Shown here: positions 401 through 64,000 of the stretch, one piece after another
Layout of the letters: the number at the start of each line of letters is the position of its first letter
Numbering within the stretch: position 1 is the first letter of the stretch
Assembly (NCBI GenBank): GCA_012813795.1
Contig: GCA_012813795.1_4087.1
DNA: 64,000 nt
Direction: 5' to 3' (one strand)
From: a phage
Notes under the pieces: model-generated
The model's database searches: none
Told to the model about the DNA's origin: nothing
What the model saw: the letters and a program-made list of their open reading frames with translations, nothing else
Made by a program: the position numbers and the translations under genes

Positions 401-950
401 AGATTGACGGGATTTGTTGAGGACATTTTCATCCCCCCGCAGGGGAATGATATTAAAAAAGAACCAATGAAGGTTCTTGATTTTGACGCTGATGGCATCG
501 GAATTTATCGAATTGCGAATTTCTCCATATTTTGGACGGTTCAAGGGTGTCCAATTTTTGGAGAACGAAAGCGGGTTGCTCTGTTTCTCTCTATCGCAGT
601 CATATGCAACGGTCGCAGGTATTTTCATCCCCTGCACTAAAGTACTGGAACTATTCGATCAATTCAGTACTCGTTTTACTCAATTTTTGGGTGCAACTTT
701 CCCGTAGAAAAATTGACCGCTTGTTTTAAGTAAAACTCCCTTAGCAAATCTGGTAAGGTGCGATCCTTATACATCTATCGAGGAACTCTCTGTATGCTTA
801 TCGGAGTTCTTTATTGAGCCGTGTCGCCGTGTGATCCGTGTCTTATTTCGCGTTTGTATGAATGCACTTGGATGGTACTAACGGGTTTCTTTTGCTCATC
901 GCCTCAGTGGGAAGGCTCATCTATCCTTTACATTTTCAAGAGAAGTAGGT
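401..950. repeat. Direct-repeat element copy A: long non-coding region with invariant cores at 567-597 and 736-771 and a GC hairpin at 433-445
   Basis: About 720 bp without a convincing ORF; shares blocks with 63490-63965 including identical 31-nt and 36-nt cores at the same spacing (139 vs 141 nt) and a stem whose loop differs between copies. Confidence 0.55.
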
Positions 951-1030
951 TCTTCTTGTCCGTTGTTAAAACGTCCACTGACATTTTCCATTACAATATA
1001 ATTATAGCACAATATAAAGTATTGTCCCAA

Positions 1031-1444
1031 TTACATATAAACTTTTTTCAATTCTTTGCTGCTTCGTTCAAATACTGTTTCAATGAACTCAATATCCTGA
1101 AGAAGCTGTAGAGTACTGGCATCTGTCTCATTGCGTGACACATTTCTGTACTTTTGTTCAGGGTGATTGAATACCACCTTGACTACACTATTTAGGTCTA
1201 CAAAATTTGACGTTTTTTTCGTATAGGAAGCCTGAAGCTTAATATACTTCCCATTATCTTGTAGATTAGTTTTATGAATTAGTTCTTCAATACCTGTAAG
1301 ATGTAAATAACTATCTTCTTCTTTGACGAATGTAATAGTCAACAGTACTGTCTTTTCGTCTCCCATGTCAGAGATATTTTTCACAGCACTAACAATTTCC
1401 AAGTTTGAAAAATCTAAATCTTTAAGCATTACACATATTTCCAC
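1031..1444 (-). CDS. hypothetical protein
   Basis: 137-aa minus-strand ORF, hydrophilic composition, packed with neighbours. Confidence 0.5.
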   Translation of the reverse strand: MEICVMLKDLDFSNLEIVSAVKNISDMGDEKTVLLTITFVKEEDSYLHLTGIEELIHKTNLQDNGKYIKLQASYTKKTSNFVDLNSVVKVVFNHPEQKYRNVSRNETDASTLQLLQDIEFIETVFERSSKELKKVYM

Positions 1445-1785
1445 AAAGTTCTATAAGTGATAATTTCTTCTCTGGTAACAGAAACTTCATTGCACTTAAC
1501 ACCATCCGTTTCATACTCGAATGGTCGTTGTGGTCGATATTCTGTTAAACCTCGTTCATACGTACAATGATAATACTTGTTCTCGTTTATGTCAAGAAAA
1601 ACAAGATCAAATTCTTCAGTAAATCGTCTATGCCCTTTACTTTCATTGCAAATGATTTTGTACTGCACATCTGGACCAAAGGTTTCAGTACTGTCATCCC
1701 ATGCACCATAGTCAGTATACAAATCATCTTCATCTAACTCTGCAAGATGCCACATTAACTGTGGTAAAAAGATTTTTGATTTCAT
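1429..1785 (-). CDS. hypothetical protein
   Basis: 118-aa ORF; GGAG 8 nt upstream of ATG; 16-bp overlap with downstream gene. Confidence 0.5.
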   Translation of the reverse strand: MKSKIFLPQLMWHLAELDEDDLYTDYGAWDDSTETFGPDVQYKIICNESKGHRRFTEEFDLVFLDINENKYYHCTYERGLTEYRPQRPFEYETDGVKCNEVSVTREEIITYRTLWKYV

Positions 1786-1797
1786 TTATTTTCTCCA

Positions 1798-1826
1798 TTA
1801 AAAAAGGACTTGATTTCTCAAGTCCC
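1798..1826 (-). terminator. Intrinsic terminator candidate after the HNH gene
   Basis: 8-bp stem ggacttga/tcaagtcc (1806-1825) with 4-nt loop, followed on the minus strand by a U6 run (plus-strand aaaaaa 1800-1805). Confidence 0.55.
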
Positions 1827-1838
1827 TATTATAACATA

Positions 1839-2450
1839 TTACTCATGTTTATCCAACAGCTTTTGTGCCTTTTTTAATGCTTTCATGTGTCGCCCGTACT
1901 CACGAACATGCCACAGATGATCGTTATCCCATAGCTCTTGACGCAATTTACGTTCTTCGATCATTTCTGGTGTAGGACGTTTACTTTCCTTCTCAATCTT
2001 ATTGAAATAACGATTCATATGTTCTTCAAGTAGATTTAGGTTTTTGACTTTCTCAAGGAATTCATCAACCGTTTCAGTTTTATTTGAACGCATTTGGTTG
2101 CATCTTGAGCACATTGTATTAAAGTTGGACTCCAAATCAGCACCACCTTTAGATGCAAGATGATTATGATCTACAGTCATCATAACTTCATAAAGACCAC
2201 ATACTGCATACACATTTAAATGCGGTTTACCATATACCGGATCACTACAGTTAGAACGTTCGATTCGAACTTCTGTAGCCTCGATGCCACAAGCAATGCA
2301 CTTACAATTCTTAACGAATGTTAGTACTTTTTGTGGAAAGTATCTGAAAGTAATACCATTATAAGTATAACGTTTCATTTTGGTACTAGTATGATTGAGT
2401 TCATCTAGTAAACTCAATTTGGTTACATAATAAACATGATATTTAGACAT
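1839..2450 (-). CDS. HNH-family endonuclease, possibly a free-standing homing endonuclease
   Basis: Cys-rich core CIACG ... VDHNHLASKGGADLESNFNTMCSRCN matches the HNH His/Asn metal-finger pattern; own terminator downstream. Confidence 0.55.
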   Translation of the reverse strand: MSKYHVYYVTKLSLLDELNHTSTKMKRYTYNGITFRYFPQKVLTFVKNCKCIACGIEATEVRIERSNCSDPVYGKPHLNVYAVCGLYEVMMTVDHNHLASKGGADLESNFNTMCSRCNQMRSNKTETVDEFLEKVKNLNLLEEHMNRYFNKIEKESKRPTPEMIEERKLRQELWDNDHLWHVREYGRHMKALKKAQKLLDKHE

Positions 2451-2451
2451 A

Positions 2452-2766
2452 CTATTCCTTAACTTTTATGTTAACACGAATATTTTGGTCTTGGAGTTTG
2501 CGAATTGTATCAATTAGTGCATCATATCTCAGTGCACATTCATTGTATATGGAATCCCAACGCGTCAGAACGTTAAGAATTTCATCACCAGCATATCCTC
2601 TATTACCATGTGAGTCAACAACAATTTTTTTAGGAATTGGTGTATCTTCTTCGCATCGTTCTAATAAGATTTCCTGGGTGATTATTGGTGACGCTTGAAC
2701 TGGAACCTTATTAGAACACCCAGTGATAAACATAAAAGTAATCAAGAATGTTAATATGTATTTCAT
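2452..2766 (-). CDS. o-spanin (outer-membrane lipoprotein subunit)
   Basis: Signal peptide with lipobox FITGC then a short mature protein; start overlaps the stop of the upstream i-spanin-like gene by 4 nt, as in the T4 pseT.3/pseT.2 pair. Confidence 0.6.
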   Translation of the reverse strand: MKYILTFLITFMFITGCSNKVPVQASPIITQEILLERCEEDTPIPKKIVVDSHGNRGYAGDEILNVLTRWDSIYNECALRYDALIDTIRKLQDQNIRVNIKVKE

Positions 2767-3137
2767 TTAAATTTCTCTCTAGCTGCAAGTGAATTTTGTT
2801 TTAGATCATTCAAAAGTTTTACCCCTTCTTCATCTAAACATACATTTCTATAAACTTCACGCTCAATAATAACTGGTACTTTAGTTTCTATTACCTTTGC
2901 ATTATTTTGCATTATATGTTTAGTTTCTACATAGTTTTTGGTATTTTGGCTTTCAATTTTACTTAAAGCCGCATCTACTTTCTTCTCTATTTTTAATTCA
3001 ATACTTTCTTTATACCCAGTATAAAAAGTATTAGCCTTCCAGCCACCAAAAGTACATGATGCCATCAGGAGAACAAACGCAATTGGTTTCCAGAACGGTA
3101 TCAGTACTTTTGAAACAATAATATCTAGTACACTCAT
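2763..3137 (-). CDS. i-spanin (inner-membrane subunit)
   Basis: N-terminal transmembrane helix (IAFVLLMASCTFGGW) followed by charged coiled-coil-like region; immediately upstream of lipoprotein gene. Confidence 0.55.
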   Translation of the reverse strand: MSVLDIIVSKVLIPFWKPIAFVLLMASCTFGGWKANTFYTGYKESIELKIEKKVDAALSKIESQNTKNYVETKHIMQNNAKVIETKVPVIIEREVYRNVCLDEEGVKLLNDLKQNSLAAREKFK

Positions 3138-3182
3138 AATAATATCTCCTATAGATGATGATATTATTTAGAGTGCTGAAAA

Positions 3183-3608
3183 TTAGCGTTTATCGATCAT
3201 TGTTTGTACATGTTCTACGAGATGTACGATTCTGGAATCACCTGATTCATACTTATCTTCGATCTCAACCTTAAATTCATCTTCAAGTTCCATGATCATT
3301 TCTACCCAGTCCAGTGAATCAAATTTGAATTTTTCTTCAATTTCTAAGGAGGTTAAATGTAAATTCATCAGTACATCTGCCTCTGATACATCACCATAAC
3401 GTCCAGAAATGAATTTTGCAATTGCTTTCTCAACGTCAGTTGGTCCACGTGTACGGTATTCTGGTTCAAGGAACCATTCACCCTTATTGATAGCTTCTAA
3501 TTCTAGTTTAATTTCATGCATTACTTTATAACGATCAGTACTTTTATGGATGCGGCTAACTTCGCGATTCAGTACACGTAGTGCATCAATAATTGTTGAA
3601 TTCAGCAT
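3183..3608 (-). CDS. Acyl-carrier-protein-like protein with N-terminal extension
   Basis: C-terminal half carries the ACP phosphopantetheine-attachment signature FDSLDWVEMIMELEDEFKVEIED (DSL serine followed by acidic helix). Confidence 0.5.
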   Translation of the reverse strand: MLNSTIIDALRVLNREVSRIHKSTDRYKVMHEIKLELEAINKGEWFLEPEYRTRGPTDVEKAIAKFISGRYGDVSEADVLMNLHLTSLEIEEKFKFDSLDWVEMIMELEDEFKVEIEDKYESGDSRIVHLVEHVQTMIDKR

Positions 3609-3617
3609 ATAATCCTC

Positions 3618-4859
3618 TTATTTTTTACCATACCACTGCATTTCTCGAATATCGATTAGAACTTTTGCAGCTAGTTGAATGTTTGGTTTCTTTGGTAGAA
3701 CTGACTTAGGATACACCACATTGCGGATATAGTCAACCTTTTCATTGAAATAATCCATGACTTCTTCATATTTCCATTTGCCGTTGCGGATATCCATTAG
3801 CATATCAGCATCAGGACGTTTAACAAGGATAATACCGCTTTGTAATGCTTCTTCGGCACTATTTAGCAGCCTGATCGTATGCATAGCATGTTTTAAATCG
3901 AAGCCGTGCTGTGATTCCATAAGAGCACGTTTAGCATTACGATTCTCTTTCCATTTGTGATAACTTTTACGGTTCTCACTGTTCTCACTGTATTCTTTTT
4001 CATTGAATTTGACAATGAGTTCAGGTCGCACTTTCAATTCTTCAGTACTGCGTTCTTTGTTGAAATAACGTAAAGAACCATCAGCGTTAATTGTACTTTC
4101 ATTAGGATTGATAATAACACCAAAGATATTTTCACCGTAATGAATTAATTCGTACCCATTGTTATAATCCAATAAGTTGAAATCACGGTCTAGTACTTTA
4201 TCAGTACTGTAATTATGTACTAAACGTACAAAATGATACTGTTTCAACGGATGAGTTGAAACTAACTGCAATGAAGTATCACGCATGTATTTTTCAAAAT
4301 CAATTTTCTTAGCATTAAATGGATGTAGTTTAGAAGTATCTAAACGTTCTACCAAATAGTGTGGGAAATTTTCATACATCCATGCTAAAGTTTCATCTAC
4401 TGGAAAATCTTCTAAGATTTCATTTAGACGTTTTTCAGCAATACGCTCTTTATCCATCCACCCGTGGTGATTAGACATACGCTTAACCTGATTATATGCA
4501 TAACCGGTATAAGAGAATGCAATCTTAGAACTAAGTAATTGTTGATTGAATGTACGTAGATAATCATAGATTTCAGTACTTTCTACGATGTGTTCAGGAT
4601 CGACCCATAGTGATTCAAGAATATTTGGGTTAGCCTCTGTATATAGTCTTAAGTACTGGTTTAGTTCATAGAATTTAGTATCTTCTTCTCTTGAATCAGA
4701 AACTTCCTTTACATTATAAAAAGGCGTAAGGATGAATTCTTTGTTAGCAAGAAAAATACCACGATAATCCGTATCACTTTCAGGTGTACTGGTTCCATAC
4801 GCTTGTGAACCTGCTAAGTGCTTCACAATTGTTTGTTCAAGAAATTTGTTATTATTCAT
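3618..4859 (-). CDS. Pol-beta-superfamily nucleotidyltransferase (RlaP/PF10127-like)
   Basis: N-terminal HLAGSQAYGTSTPESDTDYRGIF fits the GS-x(9-13)-D-x-D minimal nucleotidyltransferase motif; 413 aa. Confidence 0.5.
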   Translation of the reverse strand: MNNNKFLEQTIVKHLAGSQAYGTSTPESDTDYRGIFLANKEFILTPFYNVKEVSDSREEDTKFYELNQYLRLYTEANPNILESLWVDPEHIVESTEIYDYLRTFNQQLLSSKIAFSYTGYAYNQVKRMSNHHGWMDKERIAEKRLNEILEDFPVDETLAWMYENFPHYLVERLDTSKLHPFNAKKIDFEKYMRDTSLQLVSTHPLKQYHFVRLVHNYSTDKVLDRDFNLLDYNNGYELIHYGENIFGVIINPNESTINADGSLRYFNKERSTEELKVRPELIVKFNEKEYSENSENRKSYHKWKENRNAKRALMESQHGFDLKHAMHTIRLLNSAEEALQSGIILVKRPDADMLMDIRNGKWKYEEVMDYFNEKVDYIRNVVYPKSVLPKKPNIQLAAKVLIDIREMQWYGKK

Positions 4860-28138: not shown

Positions 28139-31100
28139 ATGAAACCAATAGCTGGCTTAGATCAATTTCCATTTGTTATAGGTGGATTGCAGGTTACTGC
28201 TGCAAAGATAGAAGGGCAAGTATTTGTTAAAGAATTGTATGTTATAAAACAAAGAACATTCGATTCGTATGATTTGATATCTGAAAATTTCAAGATTTAC
28301 AAAGATATAAAAATCACAGGTAGAAATAAAGATAAATCAACATTGACGTATGATGATGACGATGCTGAAATTGCTAAATCTTTAGCAAATAATACATTTT
28401 GCATAAAAGAATCTGATGATTTTAACAAAAAATATGGTTTTGGTATACAATATCAATTGAATAAAATAAAATTACATAATGGTGAAGTGATATTTAGACA
28501 ATCCTCAATTCGACCATCAGTACTTAATGGTGTTTTCATTACACCGAGTTCATTTGAGATTGATGTTGGTCAACAACAAGTATTTGACGCGATATATGAT
28601 CCACAAAGTTGGATTAATAAAAATGGTACTTGGGATTATGATAAATCAGTTTTTGATGTGGTTTCTTTTACACAAACATCAATCACACTTCTCGCTAAAC
28701 AAGATGCCATTAATACAGAAATAAAATATTCACCTACTGGACGAGAAATAAATCGCATAGCAGTCAGTATAGGTTCAGTAGTAGATAACACTTCTATAAT
28801 TAAAAACATTTCAATAACACCTAATGTCATAAATTCCAAATTATCTGAAGATTTTACAGTTAATGTAGTTTATGATCCTATCAAATATAAATTCAAATCA
28901 GGTAAATGGTCTGTCAGTGATACATCAGTACTACAATTTGTTTCTGGTGATGGTGAAACTGCGACATTTAAACCTATCAGCGTTGGTTCTTCCACAATAA
29001 CATTCACATTAGATAAAGATAGTACAAAAACTGCAACTGCATCAGTTGAAGTATCTTATGCAGATTTAAAATCCGTCACAATATCACCAGAAAATGTAAC
29101 TGGTACTATAGGTGAAACTGGTAGTATTTCAATAAGTTATGTACCAGATAATGCACAAAAAGGTGGTTCATGGGCTATTTCTGATAAATTAATACTAAAA
29201 GAATTATCATCGACAATATCAGAATTTGATTATGAATTGGTTGGTAATGGAACAACATATGCTACATTCGTCCCATTAGCTAATTATGATGGTTCAATGA
29301 TAACTGCTAAATTTGATGTTAACTATTCAAAACTTGAAAACATTGTTCTTACACCTTCATCAGTTAGTAATCTAGTTCCAGGCGACACAGGAAAAATTAG
29401 TATTGAATATACACCAAGTACTGTTGAAACTGGTGGTACATGGTCATTCAATCCAACTGGTGTAATAGAACAAGATCTCAGCAAAAGTACGAGTACTGAA
29501 ATGTATTATAATGTATTAATCCCAGGTACATCAACTGCAACATTCCACCCAACTGCGTCATATGATGGAACTCCTAAAACTGTTTCATTTGAAGTTGGGA
29601 ATTCCGAGTTAACTGGTATTACGCTAACACCTACTACATCAACCGTAAAAATTGGTGATGATTTCTATATTGATATTACATATGAACCAAACACTGCTCT
29701 ACATGAAGGTACATGGAATACATCAGATTTTGAGAAATATGTAACACTCGAATCAGATAGTACACCTGATCGTGCACATTTTAAAGCTATAGGTGTGATT
29801 GATTCTGTTAATCTGACATATTCAAAAGGAACAATTAGTGCAACTAACAAATGTGCAGTTAATTATTCTGATTTAAAATCTATCACATTAAGTCCAACTG
29901 CAACATATGCTAAACTTGGTGATGATTTCTATGTAGATATTGCATATGATCCAGACACAGCACAACACACGGGTTCATGGAATACATCAGATTTTGAGAA
30001 ATATGTAACACTAGAATCAGATAGTACACCTGACCGTGCACACTTCAAAGCAATTGATTTAGTTGATGAAGTTGATTTGGTATATTCGAATGGTAATATA
30101 AGTGATACGAATTATTGTGGAGTTAGTCGTCCACCATTAATTTCAGTTTCATTGTCACCTTCTTCTGAAAAAGTTAAAGTTGGTGATTCCTTTAATGTGA
30201 AGATTACATATAACCCTAATACTGCTCAACATTACGGTGAATGGAATTTGGATGAAATAAAAGAATATCTTACATATGATTCGGATCTTAGTGTTTATGA
30301 TGTGGCTGTGTTTGATGTTATTAAACGTTCTGAAACACCAATAGAATTGAAATTTACAAGTGCAGGTAAAACTGCAACAAACACTTGTGAATTTGAAGAA
30401 GCTGTGTTAACCGGAATTTCATTGAAAATACAAGAAAATACGCCAATATACGACAGCCTATATGTTGTACCATATAAAGGTGACATATATATTGATGTTC
30501 TACCTATTCCAGCCGACGCAAAATTACCAGACGATATTGGAACCATCACTGATAATACGGGATTATATGATTTAACGTTTTTTGATTTTTTGAGTTTTAA
30601 TAAAGAAAAAAGTACAAATCACCGTTTGTATTTTGATTTTGTTTCATCATTTGATGAGTATATGTATTTTATTGAGGAATCTTCAAAAGGATTAATATTC
30701 ACATATACACTGTCTAATGGTATGACGGTAGACTCACCGGCAATGGTAACAAATTTTCCAGAACTGACGAAAGTCACCCTTGTGCCATCATCTGGAAAAT
30801 GTGATGTTAACTCAATAATAAAATGCGAGGCAACACTTGATAATGGTATGTCAACTTATTATATTAATCCGTTGAGTACTTATACAAGTGAACACGAGGA
30901 TTATTTGGTAATTGAAGATAGAACATCCTTTCAGCCGTTTGATGAATTCCTTGAACCAATTGAAATTGTAGGTAAACTTCCAACAAATATATATGTACCA
31001 GATGGTAATTACGTATATTTCACATATACACTATCAACCACACCTGCCCAACCGTTGATTGATTATAATATTTACATATATGATAGTAATGAATGTATAA

Positions 31101-31462: not shown

Positions 31463-33982
31463 ATGGCAGAATTAAAATCAATTAGATTTAACAATAATGG
31501 TGTTGTAAACAGCACCATTTATAAAACCAGTACTATAACGGTTACATATGACCCAGTTGATTGGTATGATCAAACTGGGAAATGGGTATATGATAGTACG
31601 TATATTAAAGTGTTGTATAGGAGTGGTGAGAAACTTATTTTCAAAACACTCAAAGAAGGAAACACAAATATATCATTTTCACCAACTAATTATGATTCTT
31701 TAAAACAAACGTGTACTGTTGATATTCATACCGATACAGTTCAAAGTATCTCATTGAATCCAACTGAAAACATGTTGAAGTATAGTTCTGAATTTGAAAT
31801 CGATGTCACTTATAACCCACCAATTGGCACGGATCTTCCAACATGGACATATGATAAAAATGTTTTAACATATGATGCTGAAAAAAGTACAAGGGATAAA
31901 GCTTTCTTTAAAGTAAATTCTAGTGTTTTAAGTCCAGTATCAGGTAAGATTACATGTACGTATGGTGTAGATTTATCAGCGGAAAGTTTTTATTACGTGT
32001 CCGAAAACCCCGCATCACGTGTAAAATTGTCTCCTGATACATCAAACGTACTACTTGGTGATACGTTCTCAGTTAATATTTTATATGATCCACTTGGGTG
32101 TGATAAAACTGGTGTATGGAGTTACGATGATACATGTCTTGAATACAACGAATCACGCTCAACTTCTGATGTTGCATATTTTAAAGCAATTAAAACACCA
32201 GAAGGAAATAATGACACGTTAAAATTAACATATAAATGTGCATCATCCGTGTCCGATTCAACAACGTGTACAATATCATATGATCCATTGCAATCAGTTA
32301 AATTGACAACAATCCCAGCTTCATTGAATCCAGATGCAATGATAAACGTAAAAGCTGGGGATGGGTTTAGTGTTAAGGTCACATATGTCCCAGACACCGC
32401 CAGACATGATGGTGTTTTGAATTTTAACCCACTATATTTCACCTATGAAAAAGACCAATCTGCACAAGACACTTTTTTAATCACACCAATTCTACCATCT
32501 ATAGACACTGATGAACCTGTGCAGCCGATATCTTTTACTTCTAACGGGATTATATCAAATATACTCAATTTCACAATAGATTATTCTGACCTTGTTTCGG
32601 TATCTTTTGACCCACCAGAAGTTAATACAACCGCTGGTTCTGTATTTGGTGTAACTGTGATTTATAATCCAAGCACAGCTAAAAATGACGGTGAATGGAA
32701 CATTGCTAATGTTCTGGATTATATTAAAAAAGGAACAACAGTCGGTGATTCAACTTCATTCCAATCTTTGAAAGCCACAGTTGATAGTGATGGAAACCCA
32801 TCAAGTATAGATATGGTTTACAAAAGTGGTTATATCAGTACACCTATTAAATGTAACATTGATTATAGTGAGTTGAAATCTATTAATGTAAAATGTGATC
32901 CGTCATATCCACTGAATACTTCTCTTGGGATAATAGCAACATATACACCAGACACCGCAAAACATGATGGTGTATGGACATGTTCATCAGATTTAATTCC
33001 AGGTGCATCTACTCCAGATCTTGGGTCATTCCGTACAGGTAAATTAGTAAATGCAAAAAGTGTAGTTACTGTAACATCTAAATCCAATAAAGATATTGGT
33101 GCATCATGTGGATTTACCTCAACTTATTCTAAGTTAAAAGGTATAACAGTAACACCACTTGGAACAACAACAGTTAAACCTGGTGATTCATTTGGTATAC
33201 AAATATCGTATAATCCAAACACTGCACAGCATCTTGGTATGTATAATTGGGATTTTAACCCTGATTATTTTGAATATAACTATGAGTTGTCAGAGCCAAA
33301 CAAAGATATACAATATTTTAATGCTTTATTACCCACACCAGAAGAAGGTTCAGTACTAACATGTCTCCCACCTGAAGGGTCTGGTGCTACATCTGGTAAA
33401 TGTGTAATAACCGTTAGTTATCCTCCAATCAAATCAGTGTCTATTGAACCACCTGAATCAACTCATAAATTTGGTGATGTGTTCAACCTTATCGTGAAAT
33501 ATGATCCAGATACAGCAAGAAAAATGGGTACATGGGAATATGATAAAGATCGAATAGCATTAGTTAATCCGGTAACCGACCTTAACGATCAAGCAACATT
33601 TTATGTTATCAATAACGGTATAGGTGGAGAAACGGATATATCATATTCATATTATCCAGGCGTAACTGCAACACATAAGTGTACTGTAGAATATGAAAAC
33701 TTGGATACCCTAAGTTTAGTTCCTCCAAGAATCAAGAAAAAACCAGGTAATACTTTCTATATAAAAATCATATACACACCAGATGGTGCATTACATGATG
33801 GTACATGGACATACAATAAAACTGTATTTGAATATACACAGGAAAGTACTAAAGATTTGGGAGTTTTTAAAATTTCCGACACTGCTCCTGAAGGTGCATA
33901 CCAATTATCATATCAACCAAAAACTGCTGATCCAGATCAAACATTCCCACCTGTAATTTTACAATGCACTATTACAAAATAA
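31463..33982 (+). CDS. Giant Ig-like repeat protein 2
   Basis: 839 aa with the same repeat signature (YNPNTAQHLGMYNWD, YTPDTAKHDGVWT); AAGGAGA upstream. Confidence 0.65.
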   Translation: MAELKSIRFNNNGVVNSTIYKTSTITVTYDPVDWYDQTGKWVYDSTYIKVLYRSGEKLIFKTLKEGNTNISFSPTNYDSLKQTCTVDIHTDTVQSISLNPTENMLKYSSEFEIDVTYNPPIGTDLPTWTYDKNVLTYDAEKSTRDKAFFKVNSSVLSPVSGKITCTYGVDLSAESFYYVSENPASRVKLSPDTSNVLLGDTFSVNILYDPLGCDKTGVWSYDDTCLEYNESRSTSDVAYFKAIKTPEGNNDTLKLTYKCASSVSDSTTCTISYDPLQSVKLTTIPASLNPDAMINVKAGDGFSVKVTYVPDTARHDGVLNFNPLYFTYEKDQSAQDTFLITPILPSIDTDEPVQPISFTSNGIISNILNFTIDYSDLVSVSFDPPEVNTTAGSVFGVTVIYNPSTAKNDGEWNIANVLDYIKKGTTVGDSTSFQSLKATVDSDGNPSSIDMVYKSGYISTPIKCNIDYSELKSINVKCDPSYPLNTSLGIIATYTPDTAKHDGVWTCSSDLIPGASTPDLGSFRTGKLVNAKSVVTVTSKSNKDIGASCGFTSTYSKLKGITVTPLGTTTVKPGDSFGIQISYNPNTAQHLGMYNWDFNPDYFEYNYELSEPNKDIQYFNALLPTPEEGSVLTCLPPEGSGATSGKCVITVSYPPIKSVSIEPPESTHKFGDVFNLIVKYDPDTARKMGTWEYDKDRIALVNPVTDLNDQATFYVINNGIGGETDISYSYYPGVTATHKCTVEYENLDTLSLVPPRIKKKPGNTFYIKIIYTPDGALHDGTWTYNKTVFEYTQESTKDLGVFKISDTAPEGAYQLSYQPKTADPDQTFPPVILQCTITK

Positions 33983-59464: not shown

Positions 59465-59724
59465 TTAAAATCCAGTAAATTTATACCAATGAAGTCCCCG
59501 TCTCTGCGGTAGAATTCTAAACGCAACCTACCTCTATGACTTACTACATCAGTACAACGATAGTTTTTATTATTTCTACGTATTGGAAGTCCTATAAAAT
59601 GATGTTGTATCTCAGATAGATAATTTGACCATATTTTATTATGTACTTCATAGTAGAAACCTAATTCGTTATTCATATCATCATATAAAAGTTGATACGT
59701 GAATTGTAAATCATGATAGTTCAT
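59461..59724 (-). CDS. Small-protein paralog, member of 5-gene tandem array
   Basis: MNYHDLQFTYQLLY ... HHFIGLPI ... RCTDVVSHRGRL. Confidence 0.5.
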   Translation of the reverse strand: MNYHDLQFTYQLLYDDMNNELGFYYEVHNKIWSNYLSEIQHHFIGLPIRRNNKNYRCTDVVSHRGRLRLEFYRRDGDFIGINLLDFK

Positions 59725-59996
59725 AGGTACTCCAAATCAACAAATCCGCTTTTCGCCTTTTCATTGTTATAGTAAATTCCAACAAGACTTCCATTATAAC
59801 TTTTAATTCTGATAATACGTACAGTCATGTCGTCAATCATATATTCTTTATCAACAAAAATCTCGTTAATCATTGCCAAATATTCACACCACAATGTAAG
59901 AAAAAAATCTCGTTCATCGTAAGTTAATATTCCTTCACCACGTTCATATTGTTCATGAAGAATTTTGTACGTGAATTGTAAATCCTTATAATTCAT
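59721..59996 (-). CDS. Small-protein paralog, member of 5-gene tandem array
   Basis: Trimmed to ATG at 59996 so protein begins MNYKDLQFTYKIL like its neighbours. Confidence 0.45.
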   Translation of the reverse strand: MNYKDLQFTYKILHEQYERGEGILTYDERDFFLTLWCEYLAMINEIFVDKEYMIDDMTVRIIRIKSYNGSLVGIYYNNEKAKSGFVDLEYL

Positions 59997-60252
59997 AGAT
60001 ATAAATCTCATGTAATCCATCACTAGAATCTCTACCCCTGAAGCATAGATCCCCGTTGTAACTATCAACTTGAAATATTTTTACTGTTTTACCTTCGTAT
60101 TGAATTATAGTACCTATAAAATGTTCACGTAAAGATTTTATATAATCACTCCACAAACGATGATAAAATGCATTATCCATGCAGTTGTTATCAGCGTAAC
60201 GATACATATAAAATGTTAGTTTATAGGTGAAATGTAAATCCTTATAATTCAT
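59986..60252 (-). CDS. Small-protein paralog, member of 5-gene tandem array
   Basis: MNYKDLHFTYKL ... EHFIGTIIQYEGK ... VDSYNGDL. Confidence 0.5.
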   Translation of the reverse strand: MNYKDLHFTYKLTFYMYRYADNNCMDNAFYHRLWSDYIKSLREHFIGTIIQYEGKTVKIFQVDSYNGDLCFRGRDSSDGLHEIYIYEL

Positions 60253-60524
60253 TATAATATCTCTAAATTTATAGATTGTTGTCCAATAATAGAATCAGTA
60301 TAGAATAACACAATTTCACCACCTATACTATCAACGCGTGTTAGCTTACGCATTTCACCATCTATAAAGATTTCGTTAGCGTAAAAGTAATTTTGAATCA
60401 TTGTAAAATATTCATTCCATATAATATAAACTGGATTTTTATAAATGATAGGATTATGTACTTTACTTTCAATATATGTTTTGTATAAAGCTTTATATGT
60501 TCTATTCAGTACTCGATAATCCAT
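60252..60524 (-). CDS. Small-protein paralog, member of 5-gene tandem array
   Basis: MDYRVLNRTYKALY ... RVDSIGGEI. Confidence 0.45.
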   Translation of the reverse strand: MDYRVLNRTYKALYKTYIESKVHNPIIYKNPVYIIWNEYFTMIQNYFYANEIFIDGEMRKLTRVDSIGGEIVLFYTDSIIGQQSINLEIL

Positions 60525-62277: not shown

Positions 62278-62801
62278 ATATTCTTCATCACCTGACCGAG
62301 AGATTTAAGATAGTTGATTTTAGCTGGTGTTAAGTACTTATCCAGTACTATTAAACAGCTAGGGAATGGAGCACTATCAGTCTTTTTATCTGGTTCTTCA
62401 GGGATGCCAAATTTTAAACGTCCTTTAATAAAACAAATACAGTCACAAAGCTTAGATGCATATTCCTGAAATGCAATTGTATCAGTACGTGATGGAACAA
62501 GTATCAGTACTGTTGCACCATTATTATAAGCATCAACTGCCTTAGATAGCCAAGGTTTTAAGTCACTGTAAGGGGGATTTAACCAGACGATATTGTTTCC
62601 CCAATCCTGTGAAAGACTATCATCTTCCGGTGTAAAAAACTTGTCACATAATGCAGTTTCTTTAACACATGCTGCATCCAGTGTGAATTCCCAGACTTCA
62701 TCCAAATCTTCAAAGAATTCCTTTGGAGTAGTCCAGTTATCTTTTCCAGTACTGAAGTGTACCGAATGTTTGTTTTTTGTGGGATTATCCTTTTTCCCCA
62801 T
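62274..62801 (-). CDS. Phage-type DNA N6-adenine methyltransferase (Dam family)
   Basis: WTTPKEFF ... FTLDAAC ... VWLNPPYS matches the Dam motif pattern (DAAC, NPPY). Confidence 0.8.
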   Translation of the reverse strand: MGKKDNPTKNKHSVHFSTGKDNWTTPKEFFEDLDEVWEFTLDAACVKETALCDKFFTPEDDSLSQDWGNNIVWLNPPYSDLKPWLSKAVDAYNNGATVLILVPSRTDTIAFQEYASKLCDCICFIKGRLKFGIPEEPDKKTDSAPFPSCLIVLDKYLTPAKINYLKSLGQVMKNI

Positions 62802-62818
62802 ATCATTAAGTCCTTTAA

Positions 62819-63965: not shown

Positions 63966-64000
63966 CTCTTAATCATTTCCATATGGAACCTTTCAGGATT

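Follow-up and report, generated by a model that had tools for sequence, protein, structure and literature searches.

Does the small HNH gene of this phage belong to an endonuclease that is still on the move, with its own terminator and a meaningful place beside a duplicated non-coding element, or is it an old part of its surroundings? The earlier note on this DNA had leaned toward the former, with reference to the free-standing HNH homing endonucleases of T4-like phages, which often mark recombination hotspots. We analyzed the gene, its neighborhood and the corresponding loci of related phages. The term "window" is used for the complete stretch of 64,000 nucleotides.

Source Phage

The first 3.6 kb of the window showed 98.8% identity to Escherichia phage A4, an Asteriusvirus; for 121Q, PBECO4 and roughly 30 more jumbo coliphages, the values were about 77-79%. 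Judged by these identities, the window phage is an Asteriusvirus, a jumbo myovirus of E. coli of the 121Q/PBECO4/Rak2-like type which is only distantly related to T4. The comparison with T4-like phages in the earlier note has to be corrected accordingly.

The HNH Gene Product

The following features were assigned to the gene.

1839-2450, minus strand: coding sequence of the HNH endonuclease, 203 amino acids (open reading frame list, Pfam and PHROG matches, AlphaFold2 model, identity to A4_508)
2097-2174, minus strand: catalytic motif, residues 93-118, with D94-H95, N109, C114-x2-C117 and N118, invariant in 17 homologues
2289-2300, minus strand: first CxxC pair, C51 and C54, invariant alignment columns and presumed zinc ligands together with C114 and C117

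The proposed HNH motif was confirmed by profile searches. Pfam PF01844 (HNH) was matched with 26.0 bits at a cutoff of 21.4 (E 1.1e-5), and PHROG 23285 ("HNH endonuclease") was matched from end to end, residues 1-203 of 203, with an E-value of 1.2e-110. A total of 21 HNH or endonuclease VII PHROGs matched the protein, and 98% identity was found to A4_508, annotated as "HNH endonuclease." The motif VDHNHLASKGGADLESNFNTMCSRCN covers residues 93-118. Within an alignment of 17 homologues with a lowest identity of 29%, D94, H95, N109 and N118 did not vary; C51, C54, H77, N79, Y81, T92-V93, G103, C114, C117, R121 and H181 were found invariant as well. The pattern corresponds to the DH...N...N of HNH nucleases plus two CxxC pairs as a presumed zinc site. 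D94-H95 is the predicted general base, N118 a predicted metal ligand, and both CxxC pairs would bind zinc. The two asparagines follow the catalytic histidine at distances of 14 and 23 residues, the same spacings that separate D839/H840 from N854 and N863 in SpCas9.

The AlphaFold2 model (mean pLDDT 84.7, about 90 in the core) divides the protein into an N-terminal beta/alpha part (1-47), a zinc finger with a beta-beta-alpha-metal core (about 48-124) and C-terminal helices (128-202) of about 75 residues. Strands 77-84 and 87-95 and helix 115-124 form the beta-beta-alpha fold. Searching the PDB with Foldseek, the best matches were the HNH domains of the Gme nickase, McrA and Cas9, restricted to a core of about 45 residues at E > 0.4; all top matches were HNH nucleases, but at this weakness they were uninformative on function. 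The BFVD search with Foldseek returned HNH orthologues and further phage HNH proteins. A sequence search of the PDB gave nothing relevant, PADLOC and NCBIfam yielded no meaningful family, the best NCBIfam match being the IscB HNH region (E 1.7e-7, 30.7 bits at a cutoff of 175), and no recognized DNA-binding module of homing endonucleases was found by Pfam. Only 18 clusters in a database of 5.8 billion proteins matched; therefore, the family is restricted to the Rak2-like clade. There it is already annotated as HNH endonuclease.

Going by motif, alignment and model, the product of the 203-codon frame is a genuine HNH nuclease and probably an active DNA-cutting enzyme. As a stand-alone open reading frame with intact catalytic residues, the gene retained the free-standing character ascribed to it.

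The Spanin Operon, Its Probable Promoter and Its Terminator

The transcriptional context was assembled from the following features.

3163-3171, minus strand: CTAAATAAT, a motif resembling T4-type late promoters (alignment of 10 upstream regions by eye)
2763-3137, minus strand: i-spanin (Rz-like, PHROG 1152), first gene of the unit (PHROG match, loci of the relatives)
2452-2766, minus strand: o-spanin (lipoprotein, PHROG 2425, weak LysC match), upstream operon partner of the HNH gene (profiles, annotation in Munch and K64-1)
2455-2460, minus strand: Shine-Dalgarno sequence AAGGAA of the HNH gene, within the 3' end of the o-spanin gene (junctions of the window and six relatives)
1828-1855, minus strand: sigma-70-like promoter for the downstream genes, with the -35 TGGATA at 1850-1855 and the extended -10 TGtTATAAT ending at 1828
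1798-1827, minus strand: intrinsic terminator of the spanin(-HNH) operon, stem 1804-1827 and T-run 1798-1803

A single nucleotide separates the o-spanin stop codon TAG (2452-2454) from the ATG of the HNH gene (2448-2450), and in six relatives the same junction ranges from a 1-nt overlap to a 12-nt gap. Inspection of the junctions revealed no promoter of the HNH gene's own. The motif CTAAATAAT is likely the promoter of the spanin-spanin-HNH unit, a function suggested by its resemblance and position, and in most relatives, including the annotation of Munch, an intrinsic terminator precedes it. It was observed clade-wide, as CTAAATAAT or TAAATAT, about 25-35 nt upstream of the i-spanin start. In the entire clade, the spanin unit is directly preceded by an acyl-carrier-protein-like (ACP-like) gene (3183-3608, minus strand; weak PP-binding match, PHROGs 18343 and 5934).

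The strong hairpin reported behind the HNH gene was recovered; it consists of a 10-bp stem (1804-1827) and a loop of 4 nt, and the T-run behind it is TTTTTT (1798-1803). Its folding energy was -13.7 kcal/mol (z = -4.4), and none of 200 shuffled sequences was as stable. It is, however, not the HNH gene's own terminator. BF, CBB and GAP32, which are devoid of the HNH gene, carry the promoter, a AAGGAAATC...GATTTCC hairpin and the T-run directly after the o-spanin gene, and the terminator is therefore that of the spanin operon. Its position is kept in A4, 121Q, Munch, Yen9-04 and Hallingskeid with differing stem sequences. The promoter for the downstream genes lies directly upstream of the terminator stem, with its -35 hexamer inside the last HNH codons, and an equivalent of the form TTGAyw-17-TATAAT was found in BF, CBB, GAP32 and Yen9-04. 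The overlap of promoter and terminator is kept as a module in 121Q, Munch, Yen9-04, BF, CBB and GAP32. Transcripts starting about 7 nt past the downstream -10 would miss the 5' arm of the hairpin and read through, while transcripts arriving from upstream would terminate. From the arrangement of these signals, the HNH gene is a promoter-less third cistron of the spanin unit rather than a self-contained cassette ending in a terminator of its own.

Conservation of the Locus and Presence of the HNH Gene

The gene order ACP-like, i-spanin, o-spanin, HNH, (p118), DUF7325, non-coding element, Dps-like was common to A4, 121Q, RaK2, Munch, Yersinia phage fHe-Yen9-04 (Yen9-04), Erwinia phage Hallingskeid and four IMG/VR contigs. 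No other genomic context was found for HNH genes of the PHROG 23285 type, and the window contains a single copy.

The earlier note suggested looking for presence/absence polymorphism in related genomes, and such polymorphism was found. The DUF7325 gene was detected in 70 phage records and the HNH gene in about 55 of 69 enterobacterial ones, among them all 32 sampled Asteriusvirus, 10 Klebsiella and 8 Salmonella records. It was present in all sampled Asteriusvirus (except for the divergent EJP2), Alcyoneusvirus and Munch-like phages. Direct inspection revealed no HNH gene at the locus in Serratia phage BF, CBB, GAP32 and EJP2; absence beyond these four loci was deduced from tblastn counts at E 1e-5. 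In BF, CBB and GAP32 the o-spanin gene is followed after about 75 bp by the DUF7325 gene, in EJP2 by a p118-like gene. Aligning HNH-positive Yen9-04 with BF, CBB and GAP32, the difference was a clean indel of the size of the open reading frame, bordered by the o-spanin stop codon on one side and the promoter/terminator module on the other. Yersinia phage Yen9-04 with and Serratia phage BF without the gene belong to the same genus. Accordingly, the HNH gene is neither conserved at this locus in all relatives nor deprived of its catalytic residues, and a reading as universally conserved core gene was discarded due to its absence from BF, CBB, GAP32 and EJP2.

Variation among close Asteriusvirus genomes was seen for other HNH genes (Gp520 and Gp570 of fEgEco12), but not for the HNH gene of the window. 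The slot downstream of the terminator varies, with p118 present or absent and extra genes in Hallingskeid. The p118 gene (PHROG 6343; 1429-1785, minus strand) is absent in RaK2, Yen9-04, BF, CBB and GAP32, and its dS against 121Q was 0.29 compared to 0.8-2.0 for its neighbors. This suggests, as far as substitution rates can tell, that recent exchange was confined to the small p118 gene.

Age, Selection and Descent

For 10 genomes, a neighbor-joining tree was built from three short proteins (i-spanin, o-spanin and DUF7325), and gain and loss were deduced from it. One clade (A) contained the pairs (CBB, GAP32) and (Yen9-04, BF), the other (B) ((Hallingskeid, EJP2), Munch) and (RaK2, (121Q, window)). 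The HNH gene was found in all members of clade B save EJP2 and in clade A solely in Yen9-04. The HNH tree was congruent with the tree of the flanking genes. Protein identities to the window were as follows.

121Q: HNH 81%, neighboring genes 57-86%
RaK2: HNH 51%, neighboring genes 51-58%
Munch: HNH 38%, neighboring genes 37-57%
Yen9-04: HNH 34%, neighboring genes 35-50%
Hallingskeid: HNH 40%, neighboring genes 35-52%

Overall, HNH identities of 30-81% compare with 38-68% for the flanks, and HNH was never clearly above them except in 121Q, where dS still reached 1.85. Between the window and 121Q, the HNH dN/dS of 0.075 was the lowest of six adjacent genes. With a dS of 1.85 against 0.29 for p118, the HNH gene lies outside of any recent exchange or conversion tract. 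Neither tree conflict nor excess identity over the flanks nor a co-conversion tract was found as a sign of lateral movement, and recent mobility or a hotspot was not supported for this locus. In the simplest history, the HNH gene was inserted long ago, inherited vertically and lost cleanly three times or more; a single later transfer to the Yen9 lineage may have occurred.

A disrupted HNH frame was encountered in three records (CMSTMSU, SHEFM2K and SD-1_S14). Homopolymer indels or, in one case, a deletion of 58 nt account for the disruptions, most of which lie past the catalytic core, and one of the records is flagged UNVERIFIED. They are probably sequencing or assembly errors, and gene decay via frameshifted copies was rejected on this basis.

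Element A and Its Relation to the HNH Gene

The earlier note had also described a conserved, duplicated non-coding element about 800 bp from the HNH gene, here called element A. Both distance and duplication were verified. Positions 311-1030 are non-coding, the conserved core ends 844 bp from the HNH stop codon, and a second copy extends from about 63495 (minus strand) past the window end at 64000 (full length at L007:7084-7777).

About 404-995, minus strand: element A RNA, -10 at 1001-1006 and TG at 1008-1009, same direction as the surrounding genes

Between 3 and 5 copies per genome were found in 72 phage records, and the DNA identity of the element amounts to about 70% between phages with 35-50% protein identity. 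In an alignment of 14 copies taken from 10 Rak2-like phages, every copy opens with the extended -10 TGnTATAAT, which does not vary, and closes with a T-run and, behind it, the likewise invariant tail CCCCTGYGGGGGGATG...CAAAYCYCGTCAR; hairpin-sized indels lie between conserved blocks. Using RNAalifold and pair counting for 13 copies, 46 pairs were obtained with 95.9% of the cells paired, compared to 40-53% with slid partners. Compensatory changes were observed in 24 pairs versus 5-11 when slid, and the covariation score of 0.50 (at most 0.12 when slid) was matched by none of 500 shuffles. The G-U pairs were consistent with the gene-sense strand only. By this covariation, element A is a promoter-equipped structured-RNA gene of about 500-600 nt. 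Rfam 15 contained no family for it at gathering and permissive thresholds, applied to the window and five other loci. A putative resemblance of two of its blocks to conserved regions of RNase P was supported by no Rfam match. A literature search found no study of the HNH protein or of the element A RNA. Among the features in this part of the window, element A is probably the most interesting one, and it is a more valuable by-product of the analysis than the HNH gene itself.

The HNH gene adjoins element copy 1 because of conserved synteny. The element occupies the same syntenic gap in BF, CBB, GAP32 and EJP2, and no annotated HNH gene was found within 5 kb of the copies at 261 kb in GAP32 and 191 kb in RaK2. 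Since genomes lacking the HNH gene keep the element in place, the meaning given to their proximity is not supported, nor, as judged from these gene arrangements, is a functional tie between the two. Endonuclease-type genes do occur near elements, with neither dependence nor significant association shown. The Yen9-04 copy at 174 kb adjoins endonuclease VII. A4_402, annotated as "putative HNH" beside element copy 2, was excluded, as HNH support was found neither in Pfam nor in PHROGs. A 658-bp insertion in A4 (66328-66985; L007:8329-8986) is missing from the window at 62776-62810; its flanks show 98.6-99.7% identity to the window, and it lies about 0.6 kb from RNA copy 2. It carries A4_405, a fragment-like frame of 204 amino acids which matches the C-terminal half of HNH PHROG 953 (E 1e-64) with no Pfam match. 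By its near-identical flanks, A4_405 is a genuinely recent case of presence/absence of a homing-endonuclease-like gene. A shorter A4_405 paralogue, A4_397, is located 3.5 kb away.

Comparison With Known Systems

The phage proteins of PHROG 23285 (A4_508, 121Q gp513, RaK2 ORF012/gp522, Munch gp184 and fHe-Yen9-04 g156) are orthologous to the window HNH protein, with equal length and locus. No difference was found at the sequence level, and the name they carry is annotation only.

A likeness in architecture was seen to the mobA-E genes of T4; the HNH protein had no significant sequence match in T4 records at E 1e-5. According to Edgell et al. (2010, PMC2988022), the free-standing endonucleases of T4 (seg and mob) are open reading frames in gaps between conserved genes. 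Often they are cassettes which lack a promoter and join the upstream polycistronic message, promoters of downstream genes are embedded in the endonuclease frame, which favors retention of the endonuclease, and the mob proteins are fusions of an HNH domain with a distinct C-terminal part (PMC2988022). The HNH gene of the window shares all of these structural features as well as the presence/absence among relatives. It differs from the mob genes in its fixation in four genera, congruent trees and strong purifying selection, and its distribution among close relatives appears hardly sporadic.

With T4 endonuclease VII (gp49) the protein has in common a beta-beta-alpha-metal nuclease fold, a Cys4 zinc site and late expression, the latter two being predicted for HNH. 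However, the match to PHROG 1035 was marginal (E 1e-3), Pfam Endonuclease_7 was not matched, and the true endonuclease VII of the clade is another gene elsewhere (PHROG 423, E 6e-32). The HNH domains of Cas9, IscB, McrA and the Gme nickase share the DH...N...N pattern and gave the best, though weak, structural and profile matches, but the likeness is limited to a core of about 45-65 residues, and the other domains of these proteins are absent from the window HNH protein.

HNH proteins of the HK97 gp74 type, reportedly described by Kala and co-workers in 2014, are said to act in packaging, where gp74 helps the terminase. Like gp74, the window protein is a small phage HNH protein whose gene directly follows lysis genes. 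In contrast to gp74, it belongs to a T4-related jumbo myovirus and its gene is not beside terminase or portal; the neighbors within about 4 kb are spanins, ACP-like, nucleotidyltransferase or tail protein, p118, DUF7325 and Dps-like genes. Moreover, it is missing from close relatives with the same packaging genes. In the literature, such genes of CBB are called "free-standing homing endonucleases," or a packaging role is assumed.

Possible Roles of the HNH Gene

We favor, with moderate confidence, an old, promoter-less, free-standing HNH cassette of the mob type that became fixed in the spanin operon, with the o-spanin stop codon before it and the promoter/terminator module behind it. An ancestor would have acquired it as a mob-like endonuclease of intronless homing. 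It would since have been kept as a dispensable accessory nuclease and cleanly lost in at least three lineages, namely EJP2, BF with the Erwinia amylovora phages, and CBB with GAP32. The protein would be made late in infection from the spanin transcript and would cut or nick double-stranded DNA, with H95 as general base and D94/N118 holding the metal. Its likeliest present activity may be the cleavage of related genomes without the gene, i.e., homing or marker exclusion in co-infection. Fixation in four genera, congruent trees and the very low dN/dS would be expected of a domesticated gene no less than of a selfish one. A domesticated nuclease, produced late with the spanins for DNA maturation or debranching, for help in packaging or for clearing unpackaged or host DNA before lysis, is the main alternative, though a clearly less probable one. 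It would fit the fixation in Asteriusvirus, Alcyoneusvirus, Munch-like and Yersinia phages with a tree following the flanks, the dN/dS of 0.075 over the full HNH length including non-catalytic regions, and the tight coupling to a late-looking operon. On the other hand, BF, CBB, GAP32 and EJP2 retain the identical operon without the gene, which is thus dispensable; no terminase gene lies within about 4 kb, and a separate endonuclease VII orthologue exists in the clade (PHROG 423; CBB_248). A packaging role for "the HNH endonuclease" is stated in an Eneladusvirus paper, which also cites Kala and co-workers, but as an assumption (PMC7760394). A further, less probable reading is that the spanin operon of most Rak2-like jumbo phages captured a former homing endonuclease for good as its third gene, which is now selected for a late-infection job of its own. 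If true, this job of the captured HNH protein might be, e.g., the attack on co-infecting relatives without HNH or DNA clearance at lysis.

A currently mobile homing endonuclease at a recombination hotspot, functionally linked to its place beside duplicated element A, appears improbable. The ORF-sized indel at the HNH site, the variable small-gene content downstream of the terminator and the recent insertion of A4_405, a different HNH-family gene of PHROG 953, 0.6 kb from element copy 2 in A4 would agree with it. Close relatives do not differ by the HNH gene, however, as 32 of 32 sampled Asteriusvirus records carry it, and its dS of 1.85 contrasts with 0.29 for the adjoining p118. Furthermore, element A stays at its site in HNH-less genomes, other copies have no HNH gene nearby, and A4_402, annotated near copy 2, has no HNH support. 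An inactive relic which retained the fold but lost DNA cutting is very unlikely; the broken frames of CMSTMSU, SHEFM2K and SD-1_S14 point in this direction, but are probably errors of sequencing or assembly mostly beyond the catalytic core, and catalytic and zinc ligands are all invariant at a dN/dS of 0.075. Hardly any weight is given to an RNA-associated or RNA-guided nuclease formed by the HNH protein and the element A RNA. The RNA is present in every HNH-positive genome, IscB provided the best NCBIfam match (E 1.7e-7), and Foldseek gave a weak match to TasH. Yet the IscB match covers the HNH core only (30.7 bits versus 175), the TasH alignment had an rmsd of 12 and a TM score of 0.24, and the protein is free of RuvC, Nop or other RNA-binding domains. 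In addition, genomes without HNH contain 3-5 RNA copies, and two genes plus a terminator lie between the HNH and RNA genes. 

The old spanin-operon cassette, our preferred reading, itself matters little, and the analysis mainly corrects how the locus is read: the terminator is assigned to the spanin operon, and the HNH gene is seen as ancient, not recently mobile, and as unconnected with element A. It provides a tidy example of a mob-like cassette wired into its host operon by the upstream message and the embedded downstream promoter and persisting across genera.

Other Features of the Window

A mosaic breakpoint was located at about 3587-3620 of the window, the 98.8% identity to A4 ending at 3587. 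In A4 and 121Q, the gene upstream of the ACP-like one encodes a tail protein; the same slot in the window holds a nucleotidyltransferase gene (RlaP-like, 3618-4859), as in Turkey3, Ecwhy_1, RaK2, Munch and Yen9-04. Tandem repeats of about 264-279 nt were observed at 29587-30245 and 32381-32978 (families D1 and D2). Finally, three tandem paralogous small open reading frames of 88-115 amino acids with a common 49-nt repeat were found at 59681-60524 (family D4).
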